Assembly (NCBI GenBank): GCA_016212885.1
Contig: JACRDO010000016.1
Span: 8,255-72,254, forward strand
DNA: 64,000 nucleotides
Reading direction: 5' to 3'
DNA from: Elusimicrobiota bacterium
Lineage (GTDB): Bacteria > Elusimicrobiota > Elusimicrobia > UBA1565
Shown here one piece after another: positions 12,357-33,300 of this stretch. The first letter of the stretch is position 1; every line of letters starts with the position of its first letter. The position numbers were made by a program, and so were the translations under genes. The notes beneath the pieces are model-generated. The model did not search any database and was not told the DNA's origin. It saw nothing but the letters and a program-made list of their open reading frames with translations.

Positions 12357-12512
12357 GCGGCGGCAATAAATAACCCGTGCGACTATTTGCATGACTGTGG
12401 GCGACCACGGTTGGAGTAACATGTAGAGGTTGTTTATTGACGCGCACTTGGAGCCGAGTCTTAGAGGAGTCTGGAATGCGCAGGCGGGTTTTAGTAGACT
12501 CAGCCGGCTCTC

Positions 12513-13565: not shown

Positions 13566-13680
13566 GCCGGATTCTTCATTTGGCCCGAGATACGGCACGC
13601 TCGGGCGCACCAACGGCGCATGAAGGAAAGCTTCTGGGGAAAGAGCCGACGGCAATTTGTTCGGCGCCTTGGTGCGCCGG

Positions 13681-14981: not shown

Positions 14982-16651
14982 GGGGGGCGGCACGGCAGGA
15001 GCCAATTGGTTTTCTGCTCTTGCGATAAGTTCCAAGGCAGCCAGGGTTCGATTGATTGTGGAACTCGTCCGCCGTTTTCCGCACAGGCTTTGAAATAGGC
15101 GGAAAACCACTGTTGCGGATCAACGCCGTTTTGCCGCAAGGTTTGAATGATCGTGAAGGCATGGGCGCTGAAATGGCCGCTCCAGAGTGAGCCGCTGCCG
15201 TAGTAGTTCTTGCGGCCCACGGCCAGTATGCGCTGTAGCCGCTCCGATTCGTTATTGTCCATGGGAATTTCGGGATGCTCCACGAAAAGGGTCAGCCCTT
15301 CCCAGTGCCGACTCAGACATTCCAGGACTTGCTTTTGTATCGGATGCAACTGAGCATCGGCGAGTTCCCGATCGCGGATATCCGCCATGTCCGCCATGGC
15401 CTGACGCAGATTCTGATCGTGCGCCTCAAAGGCCGGCGAATGCGCCGGAGCTTCCACCCGTTGGCCATTGATGTGAAACGCCGCGTTGATGCGCGCCACC
15501 CAACCTTCGGCCCACGCACGTAGCCGGGGGTGGCCGTCGCTGATTTCGACAAAGTCCCTGCGCCGATGAGCCCAGCAGAAAGCGATGAGGATTTTGATTC
15601 CCAGCCTGGCGGCCCGGACTTGGTGCGCCTTGTAGGCCGAGTAACAATCCACCAGCAGAAAGCCATCCCAGGGCCCCAGATGTTTTCGTACGACCTCGGC
15701 TGAGCGCGAGGGGTCGAGGATGTAGACGACCGTTTCTTCCGTCACGTCGATCCACATCCACCAGAGGTAGCCCTCTTTGCCTTCTTTGAGGATAAACACA
15801 AACCAGCGCGTTTCGTCCATCTTGCGTAGCCGGGCTTGGTGGCTGTGCGCGACGATGCCGTTATAAACGGGTTCCAACAGCGGGGCAAGGAATCTAAAGC
15901 CCCCGGCGATGGTTCCGGGTGAAATCTCCAGACCTTCCATGGCCAACATGATGAGGACACGATGAACGGGCAACTGGATCAGGAATTTCGCTATCAAGAA
16001 CCGCACCCAAAAGTCGATGGCGAACATACCTTTGGGGATGAGCTTCGCAGGCGGCGGTGCCGTGATGAGGCAGGGCACGGCCCCGCAGGCGCACGTGGGT
16101 TTGTAACGCTTGCGTTTGTGGACACGACGGACGATGCGAACCACCCAATCAATCTCTTCGGAATCCTCAGTGTCGGCGATTGGAGCAAAAGGCAGCCTAC
16201 AGCGAGGGCAAACCTGCTGGTCCGGCGGCAATTCGTGTTCGATCACTTCGGTTGTGAACTTCGGATGGTTTCGGTTTCTCCGGCCATGGCCCTGCGATCC
16301 TGGTTGTTGACCCCGTTTCTGGCGATCAGGAGGTTGAACCATCAAGAGATCGACGTCCGTCGAGTCGTCCAGGCATCCTTTATCGTTCGCTGTCTTGGTC
16401 TGCTCCGACTTTTGGCCGAACAGTTGTTGCTTCAGCCACGCTCGCTGAGCTTTCAGATTTTCGATTTCTTCGGCCTGCTCCGCGATCCGGATCTCTTGCT
16501 GACGGACGGTCTTTTCCAATTCATCCACACGTTCTTTCAAAACGCTTTCGCGTTCAACGGCGCGGGCATGCAGCGCCTGGTAATGGCCCACGCGCCAACG
16601 CAATTCGCCTAACGTGTCGGAAGACTTGACCTCGACGGGGGGAACGATCAC
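14978..16651 (-). CDS. IS66-family transposase (TnpC-type DDE)
   Basis: 557 aa. N-terminal leucine-zipper coiled coil, a zf-IS66-like region (CPRC...CACG), and a DDE core (KMDETRWFV, LLVDCYSAYK, FCWAHRRRDF). Confidence 0.9.
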   Translation of the reverse strand: MIVPPVEVKSSDTLGELRWRVGHYQALHARAVERESVLKERVDELEKTVRQQEIRIAEQAEEIENLKAQRAWLKQQLFGQKSEQTKTANDKGCLDDSTDVDLLMVQPPDRQKRGQQPGSQGHGRRNRNHPKFTTEVIEHELPPDQQVCPRCRLPFAPIADTEDSEEIDWVVRIVRRVHKRKRYKPTCACGAVPCLITAPPPAKLIPKGMFAIDFWVRFLIAKFLIQLPVHRVLIMLAMEGLEISPGTIAGGFRFLAPLLEPVYNGIVAHSHQARLRKMDETRWFVFILKEGKEGYLWWMWIDVTEETVVYILDPSRSAEVVRKHLGPWDGFLLVDCYSAYKAHQVRAARLGIKILIAFCWAHRRRDFVEISDGHPRLRAWAEGWVARINAAFHINGQRVEAPAHSPAFEAHDQNLRQAMADMADIRDRELADAQLHPIQKQVLECLSRHWEGLTLFVEHPEIPMDNNESERLQRILAVGRKNYYGSGSLWSGHFSAHAFTIIQTLRQNGVDPQQWFSAYFKACAENGGRVPQSIEPWLPWNLSQEQKTNWLLPCRPP

Positions 16652-16970: not shown

Positions 16971-19193
16971 TTATTGGTAAAGGTTGTCGAGGTCCTCTTC
17001 CGAAGGCAGGTCCGTCGGCTCCTCGCCCGCCGGAGCGGCTGTCGAGACCGGAAGCGAAGTCATCTCGCCGGAAGCCGAGAAGCCGGCCCTGAGCTTCAGC
17101 GGCTGGGAGTGGTCGAAGGAGCAGTACTCCTTGGGCTCGCTCCCTTTTAGGAAGGCCTGAAGGACCCTCTTCGGGCAGGTCGGCAGGGCCAGCAGGCCTG
17201 TCTCCGAGTCCACGGCGAGGGTGATGATGTCCTCGGGCACAGGGAAGTCCCTGGGCGGGTAGTCCTTGAGCGCACCCTCCATCACGTTCGTCCACCAGGG
17301 CACCACGGTAGTGCCCCCGGTCCAGTCGGTCCCTCCCAGGGAGGTGAAGTCGTCGTAGCCCATCCAGGCCGCGGCCAGCAGGTCCGGGGTATAGCCGATG
17401 AACCAGAGGTCCCGGTGGTCGTTGGTCGTGCCGGTCTTGCCGGCGAGGGGACGCTTGAGCCGGCTGGCGCCGCTGCCGGTGCCGCCCTGAACGACCGTTT
17501 TCATGAGATGGGTCAGGAGGTAGGCGAGTTGGGGCGAGAGCGCCTCCTCCATCTTCGGCGCGTGCGCCTCGAGTATCTTGCCCTGCGTGTCCTCGACCCG
17601 GACCACCCCCCAGGGCTCGGCGTGGACCCCGCCGTTGGCGAAGGTCGAGAACGCGCCCGCAAGCTCCAGGGGGGTCACCACGGAGGAGCCCAGGCCGAGC
17701 GAGAGCACTGGTTCGAGCGGGGACTGGATTCCGGCCTTCGCGGCCAGCTCCACGACGCTGGGCGGACCGACGTGCTCGATGAGGCGGATGGAGGCGATGT
17801 TCCGCGAGAGGGCCAGGGCTTTGCGCAGGGTGATGACCCCCAGGAACTTCCCGTCGAAATCGCTGGGCACCCAGACCTTGAAGTCCTCGGACCCGGCGAA
17901 GGGCGCGGTGGCGAGCATGATGGCCTGCTGGTCCGTCGCGCCTTCCAGCAGGCGCCAGTCGCGCCCGTCCGAGTAGTAGGCGAGCGGGGTGTCTTCCACG
18001 AGCGTCATGCCGGTCATCCCGGAGTTGAGCGCAGCTGCCCATACGAACGGCTTGAAGGTCGAACCCGGCTGGCGCTTCGCCTGCACGCAGCGGTTGAACT
18101 GGTCCCCGCGGCCGCCGATCATGGCCCGGATGGCCCCGGTCTTGACGTCGAGCAGGATGAAGACCCCCTGGATGGAGGCTGGGGGCGCGGTGGAAACGGT
18201 CGGCGGGTCGATGCCGGCCTCGACCTCGGCGTCCAGCTCCTTCTTCCATTCGGCCAGCGCCTTTTCGTCGTAGGCCTTCAGGGCCTTTTCCATCTCCTCC
18301 TCGGCGATCCGCTGGAAGGAGAGGTCTAGGGTCGTATGGATCTGAAGCCCCCCGCGCCAGAGCATGGCGGTGCCGTACTTCGGCTCAAGCTGGCGCCGGA
18401 CGTATTCGACGAAGTACGGCGCTTGGGCGTTCAGCACGCCTCCGCGCTGGGCCGGCAGGGCCGCGCTCAGGGCCTCCTCCATGTCCTTCCTGGCGATGAA
18501 GCCCTCATTAAGCATGCGCTGGAGCACGATTTTGCGCCGGGCCGCGGCGCGCTCGGGATGCGTGAAGGGGGAGGTGCCGCCGGGGAAGCGGATCAAGCCC
18601 GCGAGCAGGGCGCATTCGCCCAGCTTGAGGCTCTTGACGTCCTTGCCGAAGTAGACGTGCGCGGCAGCCTGGACTCCGTAGGCCCCGTGGCCGAAGTAGA
18701 TCTGGTTGAGGTAGAGTTGGAGTATCTCCTCCTTGCTGAAGTTGCGCTCGAGCTGCAGGGAGAGCAGCATCTCCTTGATCTTGCGGATAATCTTCCGCTC
18801 CGGGGTCAGGAAAATGAGCTTGGCCAGCTGCTGGGTCAGCGTGGACCCCCCCTGCACCACCCGGCCGCGGAGAAAATTCATCGCAGCTGCGCGCAGCATG
18901 CCGCGCGGGGAAATTCCGATGTGGCGGAAGAAGCCGGAGTCCTCGGTGGCGATGACGGCGTTCTGGAGGTCCACCGGGATCTCTGAGAGCGTCAGGAGGG
19001 CCCTCTTTTCGATGGAGAACTCCGCGAGCAGATCCCCCTTGACGTCGAAGGCGCGCGTGGTCAAAGAGGGAGTGTAGTCCTCCAGGGACTGGTAGGAGGG
19101 CAGGCCCTCCAGGAATCTGCGCAGGGTCAGGGCCGAGGCGAGTATGCAAAGAGCGATCGTCAGGACGATCAGGCAGAAGCGGGATCGCGTCAT
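16971..19193 (-). CDS. class A penicillin-binding protein (PBP1A-type transglycosylase/transpeptidase)
   Basis: 740 aa. N-terminal TM anchor, GT51 motifs (ATEDSGFFRHIGI, GGSTLTQQLAK, RKIKE) and transpeptidase motifs (STFKP, SRN, KTGTT). Confidence 0.9.
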   Translation of the reverse strand: MTRSRFCLIVLTIALCILASALTLRRFLEGLPSYQSLEDYTPSLTTRAFDVKGDLLAEFSIEKRALLTLSEIPVDLQNAVIATEDSGFFRHIGISPRGMLRAAAMNFLRGRVVQGGSTLTQQLAKLIFLTPERKIIRKIKEMLLSLQLERNFSKEEILQLYLNQIYFGHGAYGVQAAAHVYFGKDVKSLKLGECALLAGLIRFPGGTSPFTHPERAAARRKIVLQRMLNEGFIARKDMEEALSAALPAQRGGVLNAQAPYFVEYVRRQLEPKYGTAMLWRGGLQIHTTLDLSFQRIAEEEMEKALKAYDEKALAEWKKELDAEVEAGIDPPTVSTAPPASIQGVFILLDVKTGAIRAMIGGRGDQFNRCVQAKRQPGSTFKPFVWAAALNSGMTGMTLVEDTPLAYYSDGRDWRLLEGATDQQAIMLATAPFAGSEDFKVWVPSDFDGKFLGVITLRKALALSRNIASIRLIEHVGPPSVVELAAKAGIQSPLEPVLSLGLGSSVVTPLELAGAFSTFANGGVHAEPWGVVRVEDTQGKILEAHAPKMEEALSPQLAYLLTHLMKTVVQGGTGSGASRLKRPLAGKTGTTNDHRDLWFIGYTPDLLAAAWMGYDDFTSLGGTDWTGGTTVVPWWTNVMEGALKDYPPRDFPVPEDIITLAVDSETGLLALPTCPKRVLQAFLKGSEPKEYCSFDHSQPLKLRAGFSASGEMTSLPVSTAAPAGEEPTDLPSEEDLDNLYQ

Positions 19194-19201
19194 TTAGGGC
19201 T

Positions 19202-20272
19202 CTACTCGCGGGTGATGCTGAGGCGGGAGTGAGCGCGGTGGCGCCGAATGGCGAGCCGCAGGAGCCTGTCTACGAGCTTCGTGAAAGAAAGCCCTGAGGC
19301 GCCCCAGAGCTTGGGGAACATGCTGATTGCGGTGAATCCAGGCATCGTGTTGATCTCGTTGAACCAGAGCCTGCCCGTTTCTTTGTCCAGGAGGAAATCC
19401 ACTCGGGCGAGCCCGTAGCCTCCCAGGGCGCGGAACGCATCCACCGCCATCTTCCGGACCCTCTCAGCGGCGGCCCGCCCCAGCTCCGCCGGCGCCATGA
19501 GCTCCGCCCCGTCGGGCATGAGGTACTTCGCCGCGTAGGAGTAGAACTCCGCCTTGGGGCGGATCTCGCCTACGACCTTCGAGGCGCGGATGTCCTCGCC
19601 TCCGCCCAGCACCGCGCACTCGATCTCCCGCGCCGGCACCCCCTCTTCGACCAGCACGGTCGTGTCGAACCGGAAGGCCCGCCTAACCGCCTTGGCGAGG
19701 CCCTTGGGCTCCTGGACCTTGTAGACCCCGACCGAGGAGCCGAGCCGGCAAGGCTTCACAAAGACCGGGAAGCGCAGCTTGAGGGCCTCCTTGAGGGTCC
19801 AGCGGCCTTCGAGAACCGCGTAGGGCAGGACCGGCAGGCCGGCAACCTCGGCCAGGCGCTTGGTCATGACCTTGTCCATCCCAACGGCCGAGCCGAGGAC
19901 CCCGCAGCCCACGTAAGGCAGTCCCGCGACCTCCAGGAGCCCCTGCACGGTCCCGTCCTCCCCAAAGGGGCCGTGCAGGGCCGGGAAGACGGCGTCCGGC
20001 CTCAAGCGCCTGGCCCTGGACCCTGAGCCGACCACCAGGGCCGGCTCTGCGCCCAACTCGATGCGCGCAGGGATGCGGTCGAAAGGGTACTTGAACGGCT
20101 TCGGGTGCCGCGCGAAAGCCCGGGGCCTCCTCTGGAAATGCCAGCGGCCTTGGGCATCGATGCGCACCAAGAGCGGCCGGTGCGGCCCCAGGTTGCGCAC
20201 GATAGCCGCGGCTGAAACGCAGGAGACGTCGCGTTCAGCTGAACGGCCGCCGAAGAGCACCAGGACGTTCAA
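19202..20272 (-). CDS. ddl: D-alanine--D-alanine ligase
   Basis: 356 aa. VLFGGRSAERDVS, HGPFGEDGTVQGLLE, and an ATP-grasp region ending FNEINTMPGFT. Confidence 0.9.
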   Translation of the reverse strand: MNVLVLFGGRSAERDVSCVSAAAIVRNLGPHRPLLVRIDAQGRWHFQRRPRAFARHPKPFKYPFDRIPARIELGAEPALVVGSGSRARRLRPDAVFPALHGPFGEDGTVQGLLEVAGLPYVGCGVLGSAVGMDKVMTKRLAEVAGLPVLPYAVLEGRWTLKEALKLRFPVFVKPCRLGSSVGVYKVQEPKGLAKAVRRAFRFDTTVLVEEGVPAREIECAVLGGGEDIRASKVVGEIRPKAEFYSYAAKYLMPDGAELMAPAELGRAAAERVRKMAVDAFRALGGYGLARVDFLLDKETGRLWFNEINTMPGFTAISMFPKLWGASGLSFTKLVDRLLRLAIRRHRAHSRLSITRE

Positions 20273-20751
20273 TATACGCCCCGGGCCTGGTACCAGAACC
20301 TGCCGTCCATCGTCTTATGGATGCAGTCGACGAAGATGATGACCCGCTCGCTGTTGTGGACGTAGCCCCAGCCGCCCGAGTCCTTCAGCCGCGCGCCGTT
20401 GATCTGGCCGTCCACGATGATGTCGGGGGGGTAGTACCGGACCGCGCCGGAGTCCTTGTGGCCGGCTGCGCCCAGCTCGACTTCCGGGATCTCGGCGATG
20501 TACTTCGGTATCAGCTCGCTGAGCTTCTCCGGGATCCGGCCCTCCGCTTGGATGAAGTCGTTGAGGCTGCGCTCGATGGCGGAAAGGCGGGAGAACGTGT
20601 GGCTCTCGGAGGTCTGCCTCTCGGAACGCTGGATATCGCTGTTGATCTCCCTGGCCGCGGGGACGCCGGCGTCCCCTTTGCTCAGGCTCCAGGAGCAGCC
20701 GGAGGCGGCCAGGAACGCCGCGAGGAACGCCTGAGACGCAAAGTGTTTCAT
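20269..20751 (-). CDS. lipoprotein, unknown function (pseudopilin-G-like motif)
   Basis: 160 aa. Lipobox LAASGC. 4-nt overlaps with both neighbours (mnmA stop, ddl start). The internal GRIPEKLSELIPKYIAEIPE stretch resembles the GspG-type pseudopilin body. Confidence 0.55.
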   Translation of the reverse strand: MKHFASQAFLAAFLAASGCSWSLSKGDAGVPAAREINSDIQRSERQTSESHTFSRLSAIERSLNDFIQAEGRIPEKLSELIPKYIAEIPEVELGAAGHKDSGAVRYYPPDIIVDGQINGARLKDSGGWGYVHNSERVIIFVDCIHKTMDGRFWYQARGVY

Positions 20752-21836
20752 AACACCTCCTCGATGGTCCCGCCCCCGAGGACCTCGTCGAAACCTTCCG
20801 AACGGCGATAGAAGACGGCCGCCTGCCCGGGGGCGATGCCCATTTCGCCCTCCTGCAGGACGACCCGGAACCGGCCGCCCAAACCTTCCGAACGGAGGGC
20901 CGCGGGGGCCAGACGGCCGCGGTGGCGGACCCGGACCAAGACATCCCCCTGCGTCGGTTCATTCCTCGTCCAGGAAAGGCTTCCAACCGTGAAAGCCGAA
21001 CGCCGCGTCTCTCTTTCGGTTCCGACCACGAGGGTGTTCGTGGCCCCGTCCAGGCGGGAGACGTAGAGCGGCTCGGGCGCCGCGACTCCCAGCCCCTTGC
21101 GCTGGCCCACCGTGTAGCAGGCGAGGCCCTCGTGCCGGCCGAGCAGCTTTCCGGATCTGTCCCGGATGTCTCCGGGTGCGAACGCCGCCGGCGCCTCCCG
21201 AAGGGCGCGCAGGCGCAGAAATTGCCGGTAGTCGTTCTTTGGGACGAAGCAAATCTCCATGCTCTCAGGCTTGTCCGCGGTTGCAAGCCCCAGGGCCCGG
21301 GCCTTCCGGCGCGCCTCGTCCTTCGAGAGCCGGCCCAGCGGGAAGATCGTCCGCGCAAGCTCCCTCTGCGTCAGGCAGTATAGAAAATAGGACTGGTCTT
21401 TGCGCTCATCAGCTGCGCGGAAAAGCCCGCATGTCCCGTCTTCCCTGCGCTCGACGCGGGCATAGTGGCCGGTCGCGACCGCATCGGCCTTCCAGTCCAC
21501 GGCCAGCTTGAGCAGCGCGGCGAACTTGACCTTCCGGTTGCACTCCACGCAGGGGTTCGGCGTGCGCCGGCTCAGGTAGTCCGAAACGAAAGGATCGATG
21601 ACAACTGCCGAGAAGAGGTCGCTGAAGTCCATGAGGCGGTGGGGGATGCCGAGCTTTTCCGCCGCCTGCCGGGCGTCCGCGGCGTCCGGGGAGGCGCCGC
21701 AGCAGCCGCGGCCCGGCCACGCCGCGGGGCGGAGCTTGAAGGTCACCCCCATCGTCTCCCAGCCGTCCTCGACGCACAGCGCGGCCGCAACGGAGGAGTC
21801 CACCCCTCCGCTCATGGCGACGATGACCCGCGCCAT
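20748..21836 (-). CDS. mnmA: tRNA 2-thiouridine(34) synthase MnmA
   Basis: 362 aa. PP-loop VAMSGGVDSSV, PNPCVECNRKVKF and GHYAR. Confidence 0.9.
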   Translation of the reverse strand: MARVIVAMSGGVDSSVAAALCVEDGWETMGVTFKLRPAAWPGRGCCGASPDAADARQAAEKLGIPHRLMDFSDLFSAVVIDPFVSDYLSRRTPNPCVECNRKVKFAALLKLAVDWKADAVATGHYARVERREDGTCGLFRAADERKDQSYFLYCLTQRELARTIFPLGRLSKDEARRKARALGLATADKPESMEICFVPKNDYRQFLRLRALREAPAAFAPGDIRDRSGKLLGRHEGLACYTVGQRKGLGVAAPEPLYVSRLDGATNTLVVGTERETRRSAFTVGSLSWTRNEPTQGDVLVRVRHRGRLAPAALRSEGLGGRFRVVLQEGEMGIAPGQAAVFYRRSEGFDEVLGGGTIEEVL

Positions 21837-22522
21837 TAGGGTTTGGTGCCGAAGAAGCCGTTGAGCAGGTCTTCATCCGGCTTGGCGGCCGGCTGGGCCG
21901 CCTCGGGGGGCTTCGCTCCGGGGAGCTCTTTCTGCTTGGGCGCCCGGGTCCCCGTGACCGGAAGGACGATGGCTTTTCGGACGCCCTCGGCGAAGATGAG
22001 CATGCCCTCTTTCTGGTCGAAATAGAGCCGGAAGGGAGACTCCTTGAGCTGGGGAGCATAGGCCTTGCCGAGGTTGTCGCGCTCCTGCTCCCATTGGGGA
22101 TTGTAGATCAGCTTCCCCCGCACATCGACCTTGCCCTTGAGGATCGGCAGGCTGAAGCGGATCCGGTAGACGCCGTTGGTGTCGCTGACCCCCGCGTCGA
22201 AAGAGGAGGTCTGGAAGGCCGCCTGACTCTTCTCGACGAATTTCTCCTCTCCCTCGGCGACGGCGCGCACCACCACGCCCTGGATGGGGTTGTCTTCGAG
22301 GTCCGTGATGACGCCGACGATGTAGCCCTCCAGGAAATTCGACTTCCTGTCGACCGACACAAACAGGTAGTCCACGGCCCCGGTGAGCCGGTCCACGATG
22401 ACCACCTGGGCCACGCGGCCCTCCGCGAAGTCCTTGAGCACGACCTTCTTGCCGCCCCTCCCCGTGCTCGCGGCGGCGCAGCCGCAGAAGAGGCCGGCCG
22501 AAAGGAGCAGCGCGGCTCTCAT
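21836..22522 (-). CDS. lipoprotein with carboxypeptidase-regulatory-like beta-sandwich, translationally coupled to motB
   Basis: The ATG at 22522 forms an ATGA overlap with the motB stop. MRAALLLSAGLFCGC lipobox. GVITDLEDNPIQGVVVRAV...TNGVYRI resembles CarboxypepD_reg. The track start at 22690 is an upstream out-of-frame extension. Confidence 0.65.
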   Translation of the reverse strand: MRAALLLSAGLFCGCAAASTGRGGKKVVLKDFAEGRVAQVVIVDRLTGAVDYLFVSVDRKSNFLEGYIVGVITDLEDNPIQGVVVRAVAEGEEKFVEKSQAAFQTSSFDAGVSDTNGVYRIRFSLPILKGKVDVRGKLIYNPQWEQERDNLGKAYAPQLKESPFRLYFDQKEGMLIFAEGVRKAIVLPVTGTRAPKQKELPGAKPPEAAQPAAKPDEDLLNGFFGTKP

Positions 22523-23262
22523 GGCGTCCCTCCCGCCGGCGGCGCCGCAGGGGCCGCGCCTTGGGCGGGCGCCTTGACGCCCTCCCCGGGGCCCGCGCTG
22601 GAGGCGGGGGCCGCGCCGGGAGAGGGCGGAGCGCCGTGCGGCGTGACCGTCTTGACGAAGAAGACCACGCGCCGGTTCTTGGCCTTGCACTCGGGGGTGT
22701 CGTTGGCCGGGCAGACCGGGCGATACTGCCCGTAGCCCATGGCCGCCAGGTACTGCGGCGAGAAGTCCTTATCCTTGATGAGGTACTCCACGACGGTCGT
22801 GGCCCGCGCGGAGGAGAGCTCCCAGTTCGAGCCGAAGTACTCGTCGTTGATCGGGACGTTGTCCGTGTGGCCTTCGACCACGATGTCGAAATTCTTCGAA
22901 AGGTTCTTGATCGTCGGAGCGATCTGATCCAGGATCGAGAGCATCCCGGCTGTGACATCGGCCTTGCCGCTCGCGAAGAAAGCCATGTCCCCCTTCTCCT
23001 GGATGCTGATCTTCATGCCTTCCCGGTCGATCTTCACGTCGATCTCGGCGTGGATGTTCTTCTTCGCCTCCTCGACGTCCTTCACCGCCTGCTGGACGTC
23101 CTTGTTCAAGACGGCCGAAAGGGCGTAGAGGATGACGAAGAAGCAGACCATCTCCGTCATGAGGTCCGCGTAGTTGACGAGCCAGGGCGGGGCCGGGTGG
23201 CCGATCTGGCAGACCTTGGGGTCGCTCTCGTCGATGAAGCCCTTGGGGGCGCGCAGGGGCAT
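22519..23262 (-). CDS. motB: flagellar-type stator protein MotB (OmpA-like peptidoglycan-binding)
   Basis: 247 aa. TM segment with the proton-binding Asp (WLVNYADLMTEMVCFFVILYAL). OmpA_C-like region (EGHTDNVP...NWELSSARA...NRRVVFFV). Confidence 0.8.
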   Translation of the reverse strand: MPLRAPKGFIDESDPKVCQIGHPAPPWLVNYADLMTEMVCFFVILYALSAVLNKDVQQAVKDVEEAKKNIHAEIDVKIDREGMKISIQEKGDMAFFASGKADVTAGMLSILDQIAPTIKNLSKNFDIVVEGHTDNVPINDEYFGSNWELSSARATTVVEYLIKDKDFSPQYLAAMGYGQYRPVCPANDTPECKAKNRRVVFFVKTVTPHGAPPSPGAAPASSAGPGEGVKAPAQGAAPAAPPAGGTP

Positions 23263-26137: not shown

Positions 26138-28123
26138 CTAGGTCGCGGGACTCTCCTTCATTTGCGCCTTATAGCTGTCCAGCCAAGACCTCAGGCTCGG
26201 GTCCGGATTGTAGGAAAGGGCCTTCTCATAGTACATCAGGGCCTCGGGGATGCGGCCCATCTGGAAAAGCTCGGACCCGAGGTATTGGCAGGCCTGCCAG
26301 AGGTCCGGATCGTGCTCGATGGCCTGGCGGAAGCACCGGACCGCCTCGTCGAGGTTGCCGGCCTCGTGCTGCTCGAGGCCCGCGTCGAAGCAGCGGCGGG
26401 CCTCGGCGGCATCGATCCGCGCCGTCTCCTCGGACTTGCTCGGCGCAGCCGGCTCGGCCGCAGATTCCTCCTTGCGGCCCGCCGGACGGCGGGACGACGT
26501 CGCAAGGACGTCTTGGAAGCCCTCGTCCTCAACCTTCGGCCGCACCGCGACCTTGCCGTCCTTCTCCATGGCCTTGATCTTGTCCAGGATCTTCGTGCGC
26601 TCGTCCTCGGCTTGCGCCGGCGTGACGCCCTGGGAGTACTCCATGGACTCCTTGAGCAGAGAACCGGCGCCCTCCGACATGTTGGCGAAGAACTTGCTGG
26701 CCACGTCCGGCGGCGCTCCCATCAGCGCGCGGGCCATATCGTCCGGCTGGAGCTCCCGGATGATGGTCTGCATGTCGCGGTCCGGGAAGTTCGCGATATC
26801 CTCGAAGAGCAGGACCCTCTTGCGGACGCGCTCGTAGACGGCGGGTTTCTCGTTCTTCAGGTATTCCAGGATGTTCGCCCGCGTCGGCGTATCGGCTTCT
26901 TCCAGCATCTGCGTCAGGCGCTCTATGCCGCCGACCAAGAAATTAACGCTCTCCTTGATGTCGGAATCGATGGCCGCCACCTGCTCGCGCGTGCACTGGC
27001 GGACCATCAAGGCCTCCATCGCCACCTTGGCCTGCATCCCGACCGGCAAGGCCATGAGAACCTGCCGGGCGTACTCGGGCCGGAGATAGCTCAGAACGAC
27101 CGCGATGAGCCACGGCTCCTCGCGGCGAAGCAGGAACAAAATGACCAGGCGCTTGAGGTTCGTCTCGTTGATGTAGGAGAACCATTGCGACATATCTTCC
27201 TCCTCGGAAGCCGGCGGCTTCTGGCCGAACATGACATCCAGCTTCCCCTCCCCCGGCCCTCCCGCTCCTCCCGCTCCTCCCGCGCCGCCTTTGCCTTCCC
27301 CCTCCGGAGGCTCGATGTTCGACTCCACGTTGATCTGGGCGGCGGGCTTCTGGGCGATGGCCTCCACGTACCTGCGCATGAAGCCCGCGAACGGGAAGAA
27401 AAGGAATAGGAGCAGGAGAAGCAGGAGGGCCGCGTAGAGCAGGGGCAGGTAGACTTTGGGCTCCTTGAGGTCGTCCATCCAGTTCTTGTCCGCGGCCGCG
27501 GAGGACTGATGGTACTTCATCTTCTTGAAGGCGACGTCGTCGGGCACGAGCTTGGCGGCGCCGCCGGCGTCCTTGTACTTGGCCATGGCCTCGACGATGA
27601 AATCCCGAACGTCCTTGATCTTTTTGTCGTCCACCCGGCTGTCGTGGAAGACCGTCACCTTGAGCTTCCTGAACACCAGGTCCTGGGCGTAGTACTCCTC
27701 CTGCTCGGACTTCGTCTGCGACGCGGACTGCCCCACAGCCGCCTCGGGCCTGGGCTTGGCGGTGATGTTGGTGATGTTCTTGGGAGTCGGGACCCCCGGC
27801 AGGGCCCATTCTCTCCCCATCCCCTGCCCCTTCTCGCCCTTCTCTTTGTACTTCTCGGCGATGCCGGCGCCTTCCTTGGCGTTTTCGCGGCGCTGGGCTT
27901 TGACCTCGATCTCCACGTCGGCGAAGACCGTTCCCTTGTCCTTGCCGAGCATGGGGTCGAGGATGTCCTTCTGGATTCGCGCCTCCGCGTCCTTGATGAT
28001 GTTCTCGCGCCACTCGATGAGGGTCAGCTTGGGGGTCTCCAGGACATCCAGGGATGCGCCGCGGCGCGCCGGAGCGGCAAGGGCGAGCGCGGCCAGCGCG
28101 GATATAACAAGTCTTTTTGTCAT
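26138..28123 (-). CDS. mini-FliF / FliG(middle+C-terminal) / TPR fusion protein (rotor-like)
   Basis: 661 aa.
- Signal/TM1.
- A periplasmic region of about 200 aa with ring-building-like beta strands (GTVFADVEIEV, FRKLKVTVFHD).
- TM2 (aa 224-248).
- A Gly-rich linker.
- FliG_M-like REEPWLIAVVLSYLRPEYARQVLMALP.
- FliG_C-like VLLFEDIANFPDRDMQTIIREL...FFANMSEGAGSLLKESME...ILDKIKAMEKDGKV.
- C-terminal TPRs (LDEAVRCFRQAIEHDPD, ALMYYEKALSYNPD). Confidence 0.75.
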   Translation of the reverse strand: MTKRLVISALAALALAAPARRGASLDVLETPKLTLIEWRENIIKDAEARIQKDILDPMLGKDKGTVFADVEIEVKAQRRENAKEGAGIAEKYKEKGEKGQGMGREWALPGVPTPKNITNITAKPRPEAAVGQSASQTKSEQEEYYAQDLVFRKLKVTVFHDSRVDDKKIKDVRDFIVEAMAKYKDAGGAAKLVPDDVAFKKMKYHQSSAAADKNWMDDLKEPKVYLPLLYAALLLLLLLFLFFPFAGFMRRYVEAIAQKPAAQINVESNIEPPEGEGKGGAGGAGGAGGPGEGKLDVMFGQKPPASEEEDMSQWFSYINETNLKRLVILFLLRREEPWLIAVVLSYLRPEYARQVLMALPVGMQAKVAMEALMVRQCTREQVAAIDSDIKESVNFLVGGIERLTQMLEEADTPTRANILEYLKNEKPAVYERVRKRVLLFEDIANFPDRDMQTIIRELQPDDMARALMGAPPDVASKFFANMSEGAGSLLKESMEYSQGVTPAQAEDERTKILDKIKAMEKDGKVAVRPKVEDEGFQDVLATSSRRPAGRKEESAAEPAAPSKSEETARIDAAEARRCFDAGLEQHEAGNLDEAVRCFRQAIEHDPDLWQACQYLGSELFQMGRIPEALMYYEKALSYNPDPSLRSWLDSYKAQMKESPAT

Positions 28124-28166: not shown

Positions 28167-28252
28167 AGCCGCCGAGACGGGCGAAGCCCGTCGAGTGCTC
28201 TTTTGGAAACATGAGACAGAAGCTGAGGCGGCATATGGGAGCCTTCTCGACG
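28167..28252 (+). repeat. intergenic repeat A, copy 1 (GC hairpin + TTTTGGAAACATGAGACAGAAGCTGAGGCGG tail)
   Basis: About 86 nt, identical to 28300-28385 except for one base. Hairpin GACGGGC-GAA-GCCCGTC at 28176-28192. Confidence 0.85.
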
Positions 28253-28299
28253 GAATGTTTCCAAAATACCCGCGATTCGCTGCGCTCATCGCGGGGGAC
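28251..28299 (-). repeat. intergenic repeat B, copy 1 (hairpin CCCGCGAT/ATCGCGGG + TATTTTGGAAACAT on the minus strand)
   Basis: 49 nt, identical to 28450-28498. Confidence 0.85.
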
Positions 28300-28385
28300 A
28301 GCCGCCGAGACGGGCGCAGCCCGTCGAGTGCTCTTTTGGAAACATGAGACAGAAGCTGAGGCGGCATATGGGAGCCTTCTCGACG
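28300..28385 (+). repeat. intergenic repeat A, copy 2
   Basis: See copy 1. There is a single A/C difference in the hairpin loop region. Confidence 0.85.
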
Positions 28386-28451
28386 TCCCAAACATCAAAG
28401 ATACGTTCGTTTGGGACGTCCCGAACCTAAGCCGTTTGGGTGTTCGGGACG
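28384..28451. repeat. twin 10-bp-stem hairpins sharing a central GGGACGTCCC
   Basis: CGTCCCAAAC (28384-28393) pairs with GTTTGGGACG (28409-28418). CGTCCCGAAC (28417-28426) pairs with GTTCGGGACG (28442-28451). Each has a 15-nt loop. Same motif family as 3540-3737. Confidence 0.75.
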
Positions 28452-28458
28452 GAATGTT

Positions 28459-28494
28459 TCCAAAATACCCGCGATTCGCTGCGCTCATCGCGGG
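28459..28494 (-). terminator. rho-independent-type terminator of the PorV-like gene (repeat B, copy 2)
   Basis: 8-bp GC stem (28468-28475 with 28487-28494) and an 11-nt loop, starting 3 nt after the TAG at 28498-28500. On the minus strand it is followed by TATTTTGG. Confidence 0.6.
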
Positions 28495-28497
28495 GGA

Positions 28498-30084
28498 CTA
28501 GAGCCGCTTGAGGAACTCGGCGACGACCTTGTCGGTCGGGTCGATCTCCAGGACACGCTTCCAGACGGCCTTGGCCTTGGCCTTCTCCTCCATCATGAAG
28601 AAGGCCGAGCCCATGATCTCCAAGGCCGTGATGTTGTTCGGCTCCAGATCGAGGACGTCCTGGGTCCGGCGGATGGCGAGGTCGTACTTGCCGTCGTAGA
28701 TGGCCTGGCGGGCGTCGTAGAGCTTCTGGTCCACAAAGGTGAACTGCTCGGGGCCCTCGACGCGGCGCGTCATCTCGCTCACGCCGGCCTCCTTCTCCAC
28801 CAGGTTCAAGAGCCCCAGGACATTCTCCTCTTTGGAATTCTTGTTGTAGGCGTAGCGCAGGGCGTTGACCGAGCCGCGCAGGTCCCGGCCATCCACGTAG
28901 GATATGACGCCCTTGCGCACGTAGGTCTGGAACTCCTCCCCGCCCAGGGCCTGGGGGACGCGGCTGACGATGATCTGGAGCCGGCTGACCATCGCCTTGA
29001 CCTGCTTGTTGTTCGGGGAGGCGTCGAGGGCCTGGTTGAGGCGCAGCGCCGCGAGCTGGAAGTCCCCCTCCTTGAAGGCTTCATAGCCCTGCTCGATGAG
29101 CAGCTTCACCTGGCCGGCCGAGCGGTCCTCGCGCGAGCGGCCGAAGCGGTACCCCACCGAGACGCGCATGCTGGCCGGGTTATCGCTGATCCCGAGCACG
29201 TGGATCCCCTCCGCGATGTCGAGCTGGAGGCGCTGGAAGCGGAAGCCGATGCCGAAATCCGTCTCCTGTATCTCCGGCGCCGCCAGGACTCCGAACCGGA
29301 AGGCGAACCACCGCGCGACCCAATACTCGCCGCCGAAGCGCCAGTTGATCTCGGCTGCCTGGGATTTCGCGATATCCATGCCCAGCAGCAGGCGCTCCTT
29401 GAAGAGGCGCAGGCTGTTGCCGATCTTTATGACGACCGGGTACTTGTCGTCCGTGTCGCCGCTCGTCATGCTGAACACGTTCTGCATCCCGACCGCAAGC
29501 CGGTAGTAGGGGCCTATGATCCGCATGACCGCGACGTCCAGGGCGTTGGTGCTGTCCGTGGAGGCGTCGAGCTGGCGGGTGACCCGCTTGAGCGAGATGC
29601 CGAACGCCGTGGTCTCCGTCGCCTCCTTGCCCCAGGAGAGGATATGGGCGCTCTGCTGGTCGCTGAATGAGTTATTCAGCGATTTGTTGAACTCGTCGAC
29701 CTTCTCGAAGCCCTTGGATGTGAGCATCGTCATTCCATATGCGAAGGTGCCTGCCATGGCCGTCGGGTGGGCGTAACCCAAGCAGTTCAGTGTGGTCTGC
29801 TCCCACAGCATCGCCGACATAAACGAGGCTTCCTTGCGCTGAAGGTAGGCTAAGCCCGCAGGGTTCCAGTACGCGGCCGTCGCGTCGTCGGCGATGGCGT
29901 AGAAGGCCCCGCCCATGCCGAGGGCTCGGGCCCCGACTCCATATTGGAGGAACTGGCCCGGCTGGCCGCCCGACTCGCCCTGGGCGAAGCGCGGGAGCGC
30001 CATTATGAAAACAAAAAGCCCGCAAGCGGCGGCGCGCGCCGCCCCCATGGGCTTGCCTGCGACTGCGTATCTATCGGCCTTCAT
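28498..30084 (-). CDS. PorV/PorQ-like outer-membrane beta-barrel protein fused to C-terminal TPR repeats
   Basis: 528 aa. Signal peptide (…GLFVFIMALPRFAQG). The hallmark GARALGMGGAFYAIADDATAAYWNPAGLAYL is that of the PorV/PorQ/UPF0164-type barrels, followed by alternating beta-strand sequence. The last 200 aa or so are TPR (FQLAALRLNQALDASPNN, YDLAIRRTQDVLDLEPNN, AVWKRVLEIDPTD). The start could instead be the Met at 30048. Confidence 0.75.
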   Translation of the reverse strand: MKADRYAVAGKPMGAARAAACGLFVFIMALPRFAQGESGGQPGQFLQYGVGARALGMGGAFYAIADDATAAYWNPAGLAYLQRKEASFMSAMLWEQTTLNCLGYAHPTAMAGTFAYGMTMLTSKGFEKVDEFNKSLNNSFSDQQSAHILSWGKEATETTAFGISLKRVTRQLDASTDSTNALDVAVMRIIGPYYRLAVGMQNVFSMTSGDTDDKYPVVIKIGNSLRLFKERLLLGMDIAKSQAAEINWRFGGEYWVARWFAFRFGVLAAPEIQETDFGIGFRFQRLQLDIAEGIHVLGISDNPASMRVSVGYRFGRSREDRSAGQVKLLIEQGYEAFKEGDFQLAALRLNQALDASPNNKQVKAMVSRLQIIVSRVPQALGGEEFQTYVRKGVISYVDGRDLRGSVNALRYAYNKNSKEENVLGLLNLVEKEAGVSEMTRRVEGPEQFTFVDQKLYDARQAIYDGKYDLAIRRTQDVLDLEPNNITALEIMGSAFFMMEEKAKAKAVWKRVLEIDPTDKVVAEFLKRL

Positions 30085-30246
30085 GTTCGGCAGCCTGACC
30101 TCCCCGCCGCGGCGGGAATCTTGGCTTTGCGCCCCCGGCTTGCGCCGGGTTTGCCGTTATCGCCCGATGAACGGAACGCTCTCGGCGCGCGTCATCACAG
30201 CCCCGGTCCAGCGCGCCGCATCCGACATCGGGATCCTGCTATTCCA

Positions 30247-30275
30247 ATTATAACAGGCGCATCTTGACTTGTCAA
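30247..30275 (-). promoter_or_regulatory. perfect-consensus sigma70 promoter upstream of the PorV-like gene
   Basis: The minus strand reads TTGACA (30270-30275), exactly 17 nt, then TATAAT (30247-30252). This predicts a 5' UTR of about 155 nt before the ATG at 30084. Confidence 0.6.
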
Positions 30276-30276: not shown

Positions 30277-30298
30277 GCCTACGAGCAGGCTTGCATGT

Positions 30299-30362
30299 CC
30301 CGCCTCAGCTTCTGCCTCATGTTTCCAAAAGACCCGCGATTCGCTGCGCTCATCGCGGGGGG
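30299..30362 (-). repeat. chimeric repeat: B-type hairpin joined to A-type tail
   Basis: The minus strand reads CCCGCGAT-loop-ATCGCGGG, then TCTTTTGGAAACATGAGGCAGAAGCTGAGGCGG. The hairpin is identical to repeat B. The tail matches repeat A with 2 mismatches. Confidence 0.8.
30323..30359 (-). terminator. rho-independent-type terminator of the giant gene
   Basis: Stem 30333-30340 with 30352-30359, starting 3 nt after the TAG at 30363-30365, followed on the minus strand by TCTTTTGG. Confidence 0.6.
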
Positions 30363-33300
30363 CTAATGTATAACCCCGATCTTCCTGATCGCGGTCTTGG
30401 AGCCGGCCTTGATGCGCGCGATGTAGCCGCCCTTCGACACCAGGCGGCCCATCCCGTTGCGGCCGTCCCACGGGACTTCGTTCTTGCCGACCCTGCCGCC
30501 AGGCGTCCCCTTAGGGCATGATATCGAGCGGACCACGTAGCCGAGCAGGTCGTAGATCGTGATGGTCACGTCGGAGTCCTCGCCGAGGACGTAGACGATC
30601 TTGGTCCCGCCGCTGCGTGAATCGAAGGGGTTGGGGTAGTTCGACACCTGGGTGATGCCCGGTTCCGGCAACGTCATCACCGAGATCGACTCAGTTTCAG
30701 CGGACCACGAGGAAGCGACGCCCGCGTAGTTGAACGCCCGCACGCGGTAGCTGAGCAACTGGCCCGACTGGCGCGGCTGCTCGGCCGGGTTGCTTGCCGG
30801 GTTGCCGACGTGGTAGGCGTTGTTGGCCACCCCGCCGGTCTTCACGGCCGTGATCGCGCCGAGGGAATGCCAGACCGGGTCGGTGCCGCTCAGCTCCTGG
30901 ATCTCGTAGAGCATCACGTTGGATTCGTCGTCGCGCGAGGCGTTCCAGGTCACGACGAAGCTCGCGCCGGAGGCCTGCCCCGGCGGCACCAGCGACCGCA
31001 CCGCGGCCGGAGAGGTGGGCGGCGTGGTGTCGATCCGGTAGATGATGAGGGGCCGGCCGGACTCCGACGGGATGTAGCCTGTCGGCGCGCTGACGGGGCC
31101 CGTAAAGGCGCGCACCGAGACGAGGGCCATGCCGTCCGAGACGAGCTCTCCGGCCAGGTGCTGCTGCGGCAGTGTGCCCAAGCACCCGCGGCCGGTGGCG
31201 CCCGGGCACCCGATCTGGCCCGGCAGGACCTGGAACTCCGTGTTGCTCACGCGCAGCGCGCCCACGATCTCCGAGCCGATGACGAGCTTGCCCTGGTTGA
31301 AGAAAATCGAGGTATCCTCGACCTTGATCGAAGCGTCGCTCGGCCCGAAGGGCTGCGCCAGGCGGGTGATCTTCGGCACCGGCAGGGCCAGGCCGGTCAG
31401 GGTCCCCGAGGTCACCGAGCCGACGTTCCTCCAGCCGAAGGTGAAGGACTCGTACTTCTCGAAGCTCTCCCCCACCGCGATCTGATAGCCCGTTATGCCC
31501 TGCGTGGAGGAGGGGATCGGCCACGAAAGCCCGAGGCTCGTGCTGTTCGAGTTCCAAGCGGACATCGCCAGGCCCTGGTCCGAGATCGGCATGGCTTTGC
31601 CGTCCTTGTCAACGATGAAGTACACCGGGTTGCCCTTGCCGTCGTCGACCACCTTGTCCGGGATGTTGTCGTTATTGATGTCCAAATCCAGCAGGCCGTC
31701 GCCGTCCACGTCCACCGAGGGCTTGTCCGAGCCGATGAGGCTGATGAACTGCCGGCGCCCGGTGTTCAGGAAGTCGAAGTTGTCCGGCGAGCCGTCATTG
31801 TTGATGTCCACGAGCGGCTCATTCACCGCGGGCTGGCCCGGCGCCGCGGCCAAGGCGGAGGCGCCCGAGGACTTCCACGGCTTGCCGTCCTTGCCGATCC
31901 ACTTCAACGAGTCGCAGACCGGGCGGCCGGTTTCCGTGGAAATCTTGACGCGGCCGGCTCCATCGCGCTTGACGATGCAGGGGTAGCCGAAGCACGGCGA
32001 GCCGGAGCCCTTGCAGGGATGGGTTCCGTCTTCGCCGACGTCCGCGATGGTGATGGTCGGCAGGATCGAGGAGAGCGGGATGATCGCCGTCGAGATGCGC
32101 ACCAGGCTCGATCGGGCCGGGAACTGCTTCTCGTTGGATGAATGGGAGGCCGCGGTCAGCTCGGAGGAGTTGGGCCCGAACATGTCCTCGAAGCGCTCGA
32201 TCGAGAAGCCGATCTGGTCCCCGATCGTGGCGCGGCCCGCCAGGTCCACCGTCGAGACGTCGCAGGCGAAGAAGACGTTGACCGGCGTCGTCGTCACCAT
32301 GAGGAAGGGGACGCTGGAGACGCTCAGGTCCACGAGGGCGGTCCCGCCGCTGAACTGCCCAGAACCGCCCGGGAAGCCGAAGTGCGTCAGGGCGCCGATC
32401 AGCTTGTCGCTGTTGGGCGTGAAGGCGCTGTCCCCGTTGTCAAGCCAGACGCTCAAAGATCGGGCGTCGCCCTGCCCGACGGCCGTGACCGGATACCTCT
32501 CCTGGACCGTGCCCAATTGGGTCAGCTTGAGCTGGGCGATGCGCACGAAGTCCGAGTTGACGCTCATCGTCACCTGCCCCAGCGCCACGTTGGTCTGGCC
32601 GCCCATCGCAGCGGAGGGCGCGAGGTTGCGCGACTCGAACCTCAGCGTCAGCGGGGTGATGTGGACCTTCGAGCCCCTGAACGGGAACTCGCCGGTCATA
32701 GTCCCCCTGGCCTGGAGCTTCGAGACGTTCAGGCGGATGCCGGGGGAAACGTCCTTGGGCGCGAGGACCCCGACCCAGGACTTGTCGATGATATCGACGG
32801 AGAGCTCGTCGTTCTTGACGGCCGTGGCGCCGACGTCGTAAGTCAGGAAGAAGACGCCGGCCGTCGGCGAGATCGTCTGCTGGACCGAGAGCTCGACGAC
32901 CAGCTGGAGGTCCTGGTCGTTGAGCTGGTTGAAGACGTCCACCTTGCGCACGCCCGCGCCGGCCGCGTGGGCGAGCGTGGGCGTGGGCCCGCCGCCCAGG
33001 ACGTCGCCGCGCGATAAGATCGCCAGGGTCGGGTAGAGCGCGCCGCCGATCTGCGTCGTGCCGTAGCCGCCGCCGAAGGTCATCAGCTCGGTGTTCCCCA
33101 CGTAGATGCGGCCCTGGCCGTTTACGGGGAATCCCAGCGTGGAAGCGACGACCAGTGTGAAGGGCGCCGTCTGGTTGGAGGAGACGGCGCCGTAGGGGGG
33201 CAGGGTGGAGCCGGAGATGACCAGGGTGTTCGCCTCCGAGACGTTGAGGTCGTTCTCGTCTAAGACGTCGTTCTGGTTGATATCCTTCCAGAGGCGCACG

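Follow-up and report, generated by a model that had tools for sequence, protein, structure and literature searches.

The flagellar motor is normally inseparable from a type III export core. In Chlamydiaceae, which are not known to be flagellated, a natural fusion joins a shortened FliF, with a signal sequence, two transmembrane (TM) segments and a reduced periplasmic region, to a FliG-like cytoplasmic domain; it is about 330 amino acids (aa) long, contains RBM2, one further unit resembling a ring-building motif (RBM) and FliG_M only, is thought to work with the injectisome, and is not accompanied by MotAB (PMC4768692). In addition, engineered FliF-FliG fusions of Salmonella and Vibrio assemble into rings (PMC6079021), and a fused rotor is therefore physically plausible. 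For the phylum Elusimicrobiota, a preprint dealing with magnetotactic members found a complete flagellar gene set in few genomes; most free-living members are reported to have no flagellar structural genes, yet to possess motAB, flbD and fliG, of which it is stated that "the role ... is unclear" (10.1101/2022.07.08.499144). The same preprint does not mention a fusion, an operon or a riboswitch. Here we describe a gene in a stretch of 64,000 nucleotides (nt) from an Elusimicrobiota bacterium (assembly GCA_016212885.1, contig JACRDO010000016.1, positions 8,255 to 72,254; hereafter the window), which encodes FliF-like, FliG-like and tetratricopeptide repeat (TPR) modules in one polypeptide and stands with stator genes behind a cyclic di-GMP (c-di-GMP) riboswitch. 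On balance we think it probable, at moderate confidence, that the product of this open reading frame (ORF) is the rotor subunit of an ion-driven motor, flagellar in type but not part of a flagellum, which occurs throughout the phylum. We found no description of the fusion or of the operon in the literature.

From its N-terminus, the protein consists of a signal peptide or first TM segment (TM1), about 200 periplasmic residues, a second TM segment (TM2), a Gly/Pro linker, FliG_M, a Gly-Gly hinge, FliG_C, an acidic linker and two to three TPRs (Table 1). This order, which an initial annotation had proposed from the sequence alone, is borne out by Pfam, by hydropathy and by an AlphaFold2 model. 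In the Pfam profile scan, FliG_M (PF14841, 42.6 bits over residues 328-391, cut-off 25), FliG_C (PF01706, 87.6 bits over residues 421-525, cut-off 23.3) and the TPRs (two repeats at residues 577-641, TPR_1 at 50.1 bits, cut-off 27.8) all pass their cut-offs, and phmmer aligned residues 315-527 to Thermotoga maritima FliG (1LKV) with E = 3e-32. The Gly-rich and acidic/Ser linkers named in the initial annotation are both present in the sequence: the former is a stretch at about residues 266-295, within a linker (residues 250-314) to which Pfam assigns no domain, and the latter is an acidic/Ser/Pro segment at residues 528-570 between FliG_C and the TPRs. Two hydrophobic segments, residues 1-19 and 225-249, are predicted as TM helices and flank the periplasmic region as in FliF; TM2 is followed by the basic residues R250, R251 and K259, and P222, V224, L228 and P244 in its region are invariant in the family. 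Hydropathy and charge bias agree in supporting the prediction that the FliG-like part is cytoplasmic, as the initial annotation had supposed. Meanwhile, the sole Pfam signal for FliG_N (23.8 bits, cut-off 25, residues 340-417) overlaps FliG_M; therefore the protein has no distinct N domain, in agreement with the absence claimed earlier, and only about 65 linker residues join TM2 to FliG_M.

The Elusimicrobiota fusion is twice the size of the chlamydial protein, its nearest precedent, and unlike it has FliG_C, TPRs and a stator. The family NF004606, which is probably that of the chlamydial fusion, gives a weak match on the FliG_M part; since this match reaches 17.1 bits against a cut-off of 297, our protein is not a member. 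The engineered fusions, of which one chain (PDB 8Z4D) is among the PDB matches of our protein, join full-length FliF to full-length FliG, whereas the fusion described here is natural, lacks RBM1/2 and FliG_N, and carries extra TPRs.

The periplasmic part was modelled with AlphaFold2 as residues 1-262 on the basis of 30 relatives (mean predicted local distance difference test score, pLDDT, 76; core above 90). The model comprises a helix (34-59), a strand (64-79), an insert of low confidence (80-143), a strand (144-161), a helix (166-184), a strand (197-202) and the TM helix; as modelled, this corresponds to ring-building-motif topology with an insertion between the first two strands, the layout of FliF RBM3 with its collar. 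When the model was compared with 350,542 PDB chains by Foldseek, the best 18 matches were all FliF of the MS-ring, mostly in the RBM3/collar or S-ring region, the best with E = 9e-5 and the rest between 0.01 and 0.2. In addition, PF08345 (the FliF C-terminal region) matches 26 of the 30 relatives at E <= 10, with a best value of 8e-6. It passes its cut-off only in one distant relative, P0228 (33.7 bits against 23.8), whose sequence ahead of TM2 reads ...DPSRGDTVTVKRQSF and contains an 'RGDxVxV...F' stretch that we take to be typical of FliF; searched against PDB sequences, P0228 is matched in its FliG part only. RBM1 and RBM2 (SctJ-like, PF01514) were not matched at E <= 10 in any of the 30 relatives. 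The 'mini-FliF' with RBM-like strands put forward in the initial annotation thus appears well supported as a case of remote homology, not of family membership, although the support from sequence is weak.

At the site of the FliM-binding EHPQR motif, the family carries its own version, [DE][ED]PW...E. Among 76 relatives, W338 is present in all, P337 in 74 and E370 in 75, and residues 335 and 336 are always Asp or Glu. The initial annotation had placed EEPW correctly and had rightly seen that the canonical motif is lost, and this loss fits the absence of fliM from the scanned major ORFs of the window; the word 'degenerate' does not hold in the sense of decay, because the replacement motif is near-invariant, and the site has been re-specified.

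The Gly-Gly hinge (G398 and G399) is kept in 76/76 relatives, and the residues fixed in the fusion family also include F440, D442, K477, K491 and E492, the last of them in 76/76, with G485 in 74/76. In an alignment to solved FliG, the torque helix ...MSKRAAALLKDELEYMGPVR... becomes ...MSEGAGSLLKESMEYSQGVT... in the fusion protein. In E. coli numbering, the window copy has Gly for R281, Glu for D288, Ser for D289, Thr for R297 and Met for K264; the only charge retained in the torque helix is that of D288, as the invariant E492. On the side of the stator, the basic pair of MotA that faces FliG is conserved (K91 in 66/66, K or R at 92 in 63/66); its equivalent is R90 in E. coli and R88/K89 in Vibrio. 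Sequence conservation therefore suggests that one rotor-stator charge pair, MotA K91 and K/R92 with E492 of FliG_C, is retained. The second canonical pair, MotA E98 with FliG R281, cannot form because the R281 position is Gly (74/76 relatives); the E98 equivalent is Gln in 52/66 MotA proteins. A joint loss of E98 and R281 was considered and is only partly true, as one MotA clade (12/66) keeps Glu at this position, with no compensating basic residue in FliG. Since both the N domain and the EHPQR motif are missing, the score on the FliG equivalog TIGR00207 is 101.1 bits (cut-off 226.7) and most of the torque charges are changed, the protein lies outside FliG in the strict sense.

A first protein search returned more than 300 relatives, and the following statements on identity and coverage refer to the 120 listed. 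They are 45-73% identical to the query with a query coverage of 92-100% in all but one, and those named by organism are all Elusimicrobiota or 'unclassified bacterium'. Homologous fusions, for which the initial annotation had suggested a search of public genomes, were found by a one-genome-per-species scan in at least 137 species-level genomes, the best 80 of which are all Elusimicrobiota or unclassified metagenome-assembled genomes, including two megabase-scale assemblies. With an Elusimicrobiaceae-like copy as query, the best 120 matches were all uncultured genomes. A profile of the N-terminal part of the fusion retrieved only 187 clusters among 1.84 billion proteins. As judged from this conservation, the fusion family appears to be under strong selection across Elusimicrobiota.

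The gene neighbourhood was surveyed with the gene tables of four relatives and by tblastn over 85 loci. The order is invariant: a PorV-like/TPR protein, the fusion, a coiled-coil protein, FlbD, MotA, MotB and a lipoprotein of about 230 aa, usually followed by mnmA; the PorV-like gene is kept directly upstream of the fusion gene across loci. The arrangement fliF, fliG ... flbD, motA, motB is that of flagellar operons of spirochaetes and clostridia, and the gene order is compatible with an origin from a cluster of flagellar genes. Of all members, MotA is the best conserved (67-87% identity across the phylum), and its closest solved structures are flagellar MotA/PomA (E = 1e-42 to 6e-50); the channel Asp33 of MotB is kept in 64/64. 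The start of flbD overlaps the stop of the coiled-coil gene, and an interaction of FlbD (SwrD family) with MotA has been predicted in silico and not confirmed biochemically (PMC13232269). The PorV-like protein scores 93.3 bits on NF033709 (cut-off 90), and its match to PorV in the PDB (6H3I) reaches only E = 0.034. The coiled-coil protein matched no family in Pfam, NCBIfam or PADLOC; its relatives share about 200 conserved N-terminal residues and a variable rod, with total lengths of 401-1080 aa. It is this operon context, with riboswitch, PorV-like gene and stator genes, that makes the fusion protein interpretable; it did not form part of the initial annotation.

The C-terminal tail of the lipoprotein is near-invariant and acidic-aromatic across relatives (E/D-D-L-F-K-G-F-G-F-G). 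These relatives are confined to Elusimicrobiota; the modelled protein is a beta-sandwich (pLDDT 75), and a fold search of the PDB gave generic immunoglobulin (Ig)/pilin-like matches only (E >= 0.018). Downstream, the lipoprotein gene, mnmA, a gene for a 160-aa lipoprotein and ddl have overlapping stop and start codons (19202-22522, minus strand), and a PBP1-type gene follows just downstream of ddl on the same strand. The mnmA/ddl/PBP1 order is kept in many relatives, and the motor operon may be co-transcribed with these tRNA-modification and cell-wall genes. In one related locus (L010), the catalytic domain of a group II intron was found downstream of the operon, at 18588-18668 on the plus strand (RF00029, 51.9 bits).

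The riboswitch aptamer stops 2 nt short of the ATG that starts the PorV-like gene. Rfam places it in the same position at all six other loci tested; at the locus L003 it is the c-di-GMP-I-GGC variant (RF03167) that scores best. The Rfam hits were used to build a covariance model, which found a single copy, alike in position and orientation, in 72/84 sources; of the remaining 12, 11 have too little upstream sequence or no PorV-like gene, and the twelfth is the variant locus L086 described below. In 66 copies, 95% of cells are paired and 17/22 pairs show compensatory changes, against 34-46% pairing in slid controls. About 80 nt upstream of the riboswitch lies a sigma-70 promoter-like site, in a genome of about 65% G+C; from its position, the giant gene further upstream belongs to a separate transcription unit. 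In other bacteria, flagella, pili and adhesins are under second-messenger control, and the conserved aptamer ahead of the first gene suggests that the same applies to the whole machine here.

Between the fusion and PorV-like genes (28167-28498), a repeat of about 130 nt is present as two tandem copies (99% identical) and a partial copy, and a further copy, partly inverted, lies between the PorV-like and giant genes (30282-30363). Its hairpin core ACCCGCGATTCGCTGCGCTCATCGCGGGGG occurs three times, with no other occurrence in the window. The 374-nt gap ahead of the fusion gene is unusually long because of this repeat, which is possibly of the repetitive extragenic palindromic type or like a miniature inverted-repeat transposable element.

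The giant gene encodes a surface protein whose C-terminus matches the type A sorting domain model of type IX secretion (T9SS), TIGR04183, with 27.7 bits (cut-off 23). The frame has no in-frame stop before the end of the window; because it is still open there, the true N-terminus probably lies beyond that end. The relatives measure 12,492-14,004 aa. The region shows a marked positive GC skew on the plus strand, and its sequence consists mostly of unassigned Ig-like repeats. Of the 57 loci with enough flank, 22 have as immediate upstream neighbour of the PorV-like gene a very large ORF that shares the tail of the giant protein (...KGGYIARIK...RKIGVIH). In the T9SS, PorV binds type A sorting domains.

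Distant relatives of the fusion without TPRs occur in a simpler cluster of a TPR protein, the fusion, MotA and MotB (loci L086 and L087). In L086 the TPR protein has a LysM domain, MotB is duplicated and the riboswitch is missing. Both clusters lack the coiled-coil gene and flbD, and both adjoin proteins with fn3 and CHU_C/FlgD_ig sorting-type tails. As these TPR-less clusters are also without the coiled-coil gene and flbD, the two loci give a hint that the C-terminal TPRs of the fusion work with the coiled-coil protein and FlbD.

Neither fliM, fliN nor other flagellar structural genes were found among the scanned major ORFs of the window, and no other flagellar families were found in the gene tables of six related loci. 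Elsewhere in the window, an IS66-family transposase (557 aa) lies beside a DruA-like protein (Druantia; PF14236, E = 1e-47) at 14100-16651 on the minus strand; the G+C content of this region (0.57) is below that of the rest of the window, and therefore the region is probably a mobile or defence insertion. An ORF of 935 aa at 10848-13655, also on the minus strand, matches no Pfam family at E <= 0.001.

Table 1. Features of the fusion gene and its neighbourhood (positions in the window; residues are those of the encoded protein).
Feature	Position	Strand	Evidence
Fusion ORF, FliF/FliG/TPR, 661 aa	26138-28123	minus	ORF; Pfam; full-length relatives at 45-73% identity
Signal peptide or TM1, residues 1-24	28052-28123	minus	Hydropathy; basic N-terminus MTKR; modelled helix 3-15
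Periplasmic FliF RBM3-like domain, residues 25-224, with insert of about 65 residues (80-143)	27452-28051	minus	AlphaFold2; Foldseek; PF08345 in relatives
TM2, residues 225-249	27377-27451	minus	Kyte-Doolittle mean up to 2.7; RR next
Cytoplasmic Gly/Pro/acidic linker, residues 250-314	27182-27376	minus	Position of FliF tail and FliG_N; sequence
FliG middle domain, residues 315-395	26939-27181	minus	Pfam PF14841; alignment to 1LKV
EEPW (residues 335-338) in place of EHPQ of FliM-binding EHPQR; E370 replaces Arg	27110-27121 (EEPW)	minus	Alignment to Thermotoga FliG
Gly-Gly hinge (G398, G399) and FliG C-terminal domain, torque helix NMSEGAGSLLKESMEY, residues 396-527	26543-26938	minus	Pfam; alignment
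Two to three tetratricopeptide repeats, residues 571-653	26165-26413	minus	Pfam TPR_1, TPR_2, TPR_8; PDB consensus-TPR matches
Giant surface protein, at least 11,203 aa, Ig-like repeats, T9SS type A C-terminal sorting domain	30363-63974	minus	ORF; TIGR04183
Sigma-70 promoter-like site TTGACA-17-TATAAT (12 of 12, with TG)	30247-30275	minus	Sequence
c-di-GMP-I riboswitch aptamer	30086-30165	minus	Rfam RF01051, 60.5 bits against gathering score 35
PorV/PorQ-family outer-membrane barrel with C-terminal TPR region, 528 aa	28498-30084	minus	NCBIfam NF033709; TPR matches
Coiled-coil protein, 594 aa	24328-26112	minus	ORF; operon survey
FlbD/SwrD-family protein, 74 aa	24107-24331	minus	Pfam PF06289, 87.6 bits
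MotA/PomA-type stator A subunit, 270 aa	23266-24078	minus	Pfam PF01618; PDB MotA 6YSF, E = 6e-50
MotB-type stator B subunit: plug, Asp33, OmpA-like peptidoglycan-binding domain	22519-23262	minus	Pfam PF13677, PF00691
Conserved lipoprotein, 228 aa, C-terminal tail DDLFKGFGFG	21836-22522	minus	Synteny in 50 loci

Compared with the flagellar rotor and stator, the locus shares FliG_M, the Gly-Gly hinge, FliG_C and a probable RBM3-like module between two TM helices, an adjacent stator with plug, channel Asp and peptidoglycan-binding domain, the flbD-motA-motB order, and, for one torque pair, the basic residues of MotA and the acidic residue of FliG. It differs in that the rotor is one polypeptide without RBM1/RBM2, FliG_N and EHPQR but with an added TPR tail, in that 4/5 torque-helix charges are changed, in that genes for FliM/FliN, export gate, rod, hook and filament are not found nearby, and in its partnership with a PorV-like protein behind a c-di-GMP riboswitch. 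There are also likenesses to the T9SS and gliding machinery of Bacteroidota, in which an inner-membrane ion motor of the 5:2 type is likewise encoded with a PorV-family outer-membrane protein, adjoining giant surface proteins with type A sorting domains and periplasmic TPR and lipoprotein partners. However, the motor here is MotAB with a FliF/G rotor and not GldL/GldM, and Elusimicrobiota are outside the group in which the T9SS is described; the resemblance to T9SS/GldLM concerns a possible mode of work, not membership or homology. Generally, the fusion is probably built from FliF/FliG core modules and probably works like FliF/FliG, and the surrounding system may be a new kind of machine made from known parts.

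If the protein is a rotor subunit, it would assemble into an inner-membrane ring through its RBM3-like module, as FliF does through RBM3, and peptidoglycan-anchored MotA5B2 units, helped by FlbD, would turn the ring by pushing on the torque helix of FliG_C. Since there is no FliM/FliN switch complex, the machine would not be steered by CheY; c-di-GMP would instead set its amount. As no rod, hook or export gate is found nearby, torque would have to be passed to the envelope or to the cytoplasm. On the envelope side, it could run, speculatively, from the ring face through the lipoprotein to the TPR region of the PorV-like protein and on to the giant sorting-domain adhesins, resulting in movement or export. 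Acidic-aromatic C-terminal peptides are classic TPR ligands, and for this reason the lipoprotein tail might be a ligand of the TPRs that the PorV-like protein exposes to the periplasm. On the cytoplasmic side, and equally speculatively, the TPRs could act as 'teeth' that engage the long coiled-coil protein. Of these two outputs we favour the envelope and its adhesins, by analogy and as a speculation, because sorting-domain proteins are neighbours of both types of cluster. In its full form, this amounts to an undescribed envelope-spanning rotary machine, in which a c-di-GMP-gated FliF/FliG ring is driven by MotAB, has no export gate, rod or filament, and moves (by gliding) or exports giant adhesins via the PorV-like protein; we offer it as a tentative possibility only.

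Several observations weigh against these proposals. Among the relatives, 4/5 classical torque-helix charges are gone (K264 is Met or Gln, R281 Gly, D289 Ser, R297 Thr); because most of these charges are lost, the rotor-stator interface may work differently, or may be no torque interface at all. The TM-scores of the FliF matches in Foldseek are low (0.24-0.42). The window's own copy of the fusion matches neither PF08345 nor any other Pfam FliF model at E <= 10, which, together with the missing RBM1/2, keeps the protein outside FliF, and no FliF came up when PDB sequences were searched with a profile of the periplasmic domain, the best matches (E of about 1-2) being due to chance or to the TM helix. 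With regard to the envelope output, only about 40% of loci have a giant adhesin gene next to the operon, and that of the window lies upstream of promoter and riboswitch and so outside that transcription unit. Core T9SS proteins (SprA, PorK/L/M/N, PorU) were seen neither in the window nor among the genes tabulated for the loci, although no search aimed at them was made. The absence of a flagellum from this organism is suggested by the window and the preprint, and ring formation, rotation and contact with MotA or the PorV-like protein are predicted from homology and gene order. In addition, the operon runs into mnmA and ddl, with PBP1 downstream, which could point to envelope maintenance.

This last point is shared by a reading in which the complex does not rotate and is a force transducer or scaffold driven by the proton-motive force, like Tol-Pal or ExbBD-TonB, and serves envelope integrity, division or the handling of outer-membrane proteins; the MotAB-like unit would then power conformational changes of an anchored ring of FliF/G type. 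Its parts list, namely a motor of the 5:2 type, a subunit that binds peptidoglycan, a lipoprotein and a TPR-bearing outer-membrane protein, is like that of Tol-Pal with CpoB, the continuation into mnmA, ddl and PBP1 is on the same strand, and the loss of most torque-helix charges agrees with it as well. We nevertheless regard it as unlikely, if worth serious attention, for the MotA is of the flagellar type (1e-50 to 1e-68 for MotA/MotP/PomA against E = 0.014 for TolQ), strong selection has kept the torque-receiving domains, among them the hinge and the invariant K491-E492, and the genes that c-di-GMP riboswitches control are typically those for motility, adhesion and biofilms; moreover, Elusimicrobia are reported to have a Tol-Pal system of their own (PMC12204202). 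A purely cytoplasmic output, in which the TPR ring engages the coiled-coil protein (with FlbD) and moves, positions or signals along a cytoplasmic filament while the outer-membrane neighbours are only loosely related, seems to us quite improbable. Both the TPR tail and the coiled-coil protein belong to the cytoplasm, their genes are side by side, the coiled-coil protein combines its conserved N-terminal region with a variable rod, and the TPR-less clusters are without coiled-coil and flbD genes; but this co-occurrence comes from two variant loci only, the PorV-like gene is as tightly linked and is the first gene behind the riboswitch in 72/84 sources, and the coiled-coil protein could be given no family or fold.

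That the gene is an ordinary flagellar FliG paralogue, or a functionless, decaying remnant of a lost flagellum, is very unlikely. Some database records do label relatives 'flagellar motor switch protein FliG', and a few Elusimicrobiota have complete flagellar gene sets (10.1101/2022.07.08.499144). However, no other flagellar structural gene accompanies it among the scanned major ORFs of the window or within 10 kb of the related loci examined, the protein is fused to a membrane anchor and is without FliG_N and FliM site, and its TIGR00207 score is 101 bits against a cut-off of 227; a remnant would also not be kept at full length in at least 137 species, with invariant residues numbering in the dozens, a constant gene order and a riboswitch that shows covariation. 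We give practically no credence to an anti-phage system like Zorya, which pairs a MotAB-like motor with a long coiled coil. MotB does match ZorB models (E = 2.5e-19) and a coiled-coil gene stands beside the MotAB pair, but in the PADLOC scan the match was generic MotB-ZorB homology, MotA, the coiled-coil protein and the other members were without a match, and the fixed chromosomal position beside housekeeping genes across the phylum is unlike that of defence islands; this candidate was therefore rejected.

The reading of the fusion as the rotor subunit of a non-flagellar motor offers a concrete, testable answer to a published puzzle, namely why non-flagellated Elusimicrobiota, including magnetotactic ones that need some means of moving, keep motAB, flbD and fliG. 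Torque-receiving parts and a flagellar-type stator appear to be selected phylum-wide in cells reported to lack flagellar structural genes, and in a new association with outer-membrane and surface proteins of T9SS-like kind, which bears on the origin and re-use of rotor and stator. A rotor of one protein, with no switch complex, would also be a simpler object for structural and biophysical study, and the conserved c-di-GMP riboswitch ties the machine to the decision between motile and sessile life and provides an experimental handle. If the reading is true, a flagellar rotor-stator module can exist and function apart from the type III export apparatus, and it would represent either a radical reduction of the flagellum or a living model of a pre-flagellar rotor.

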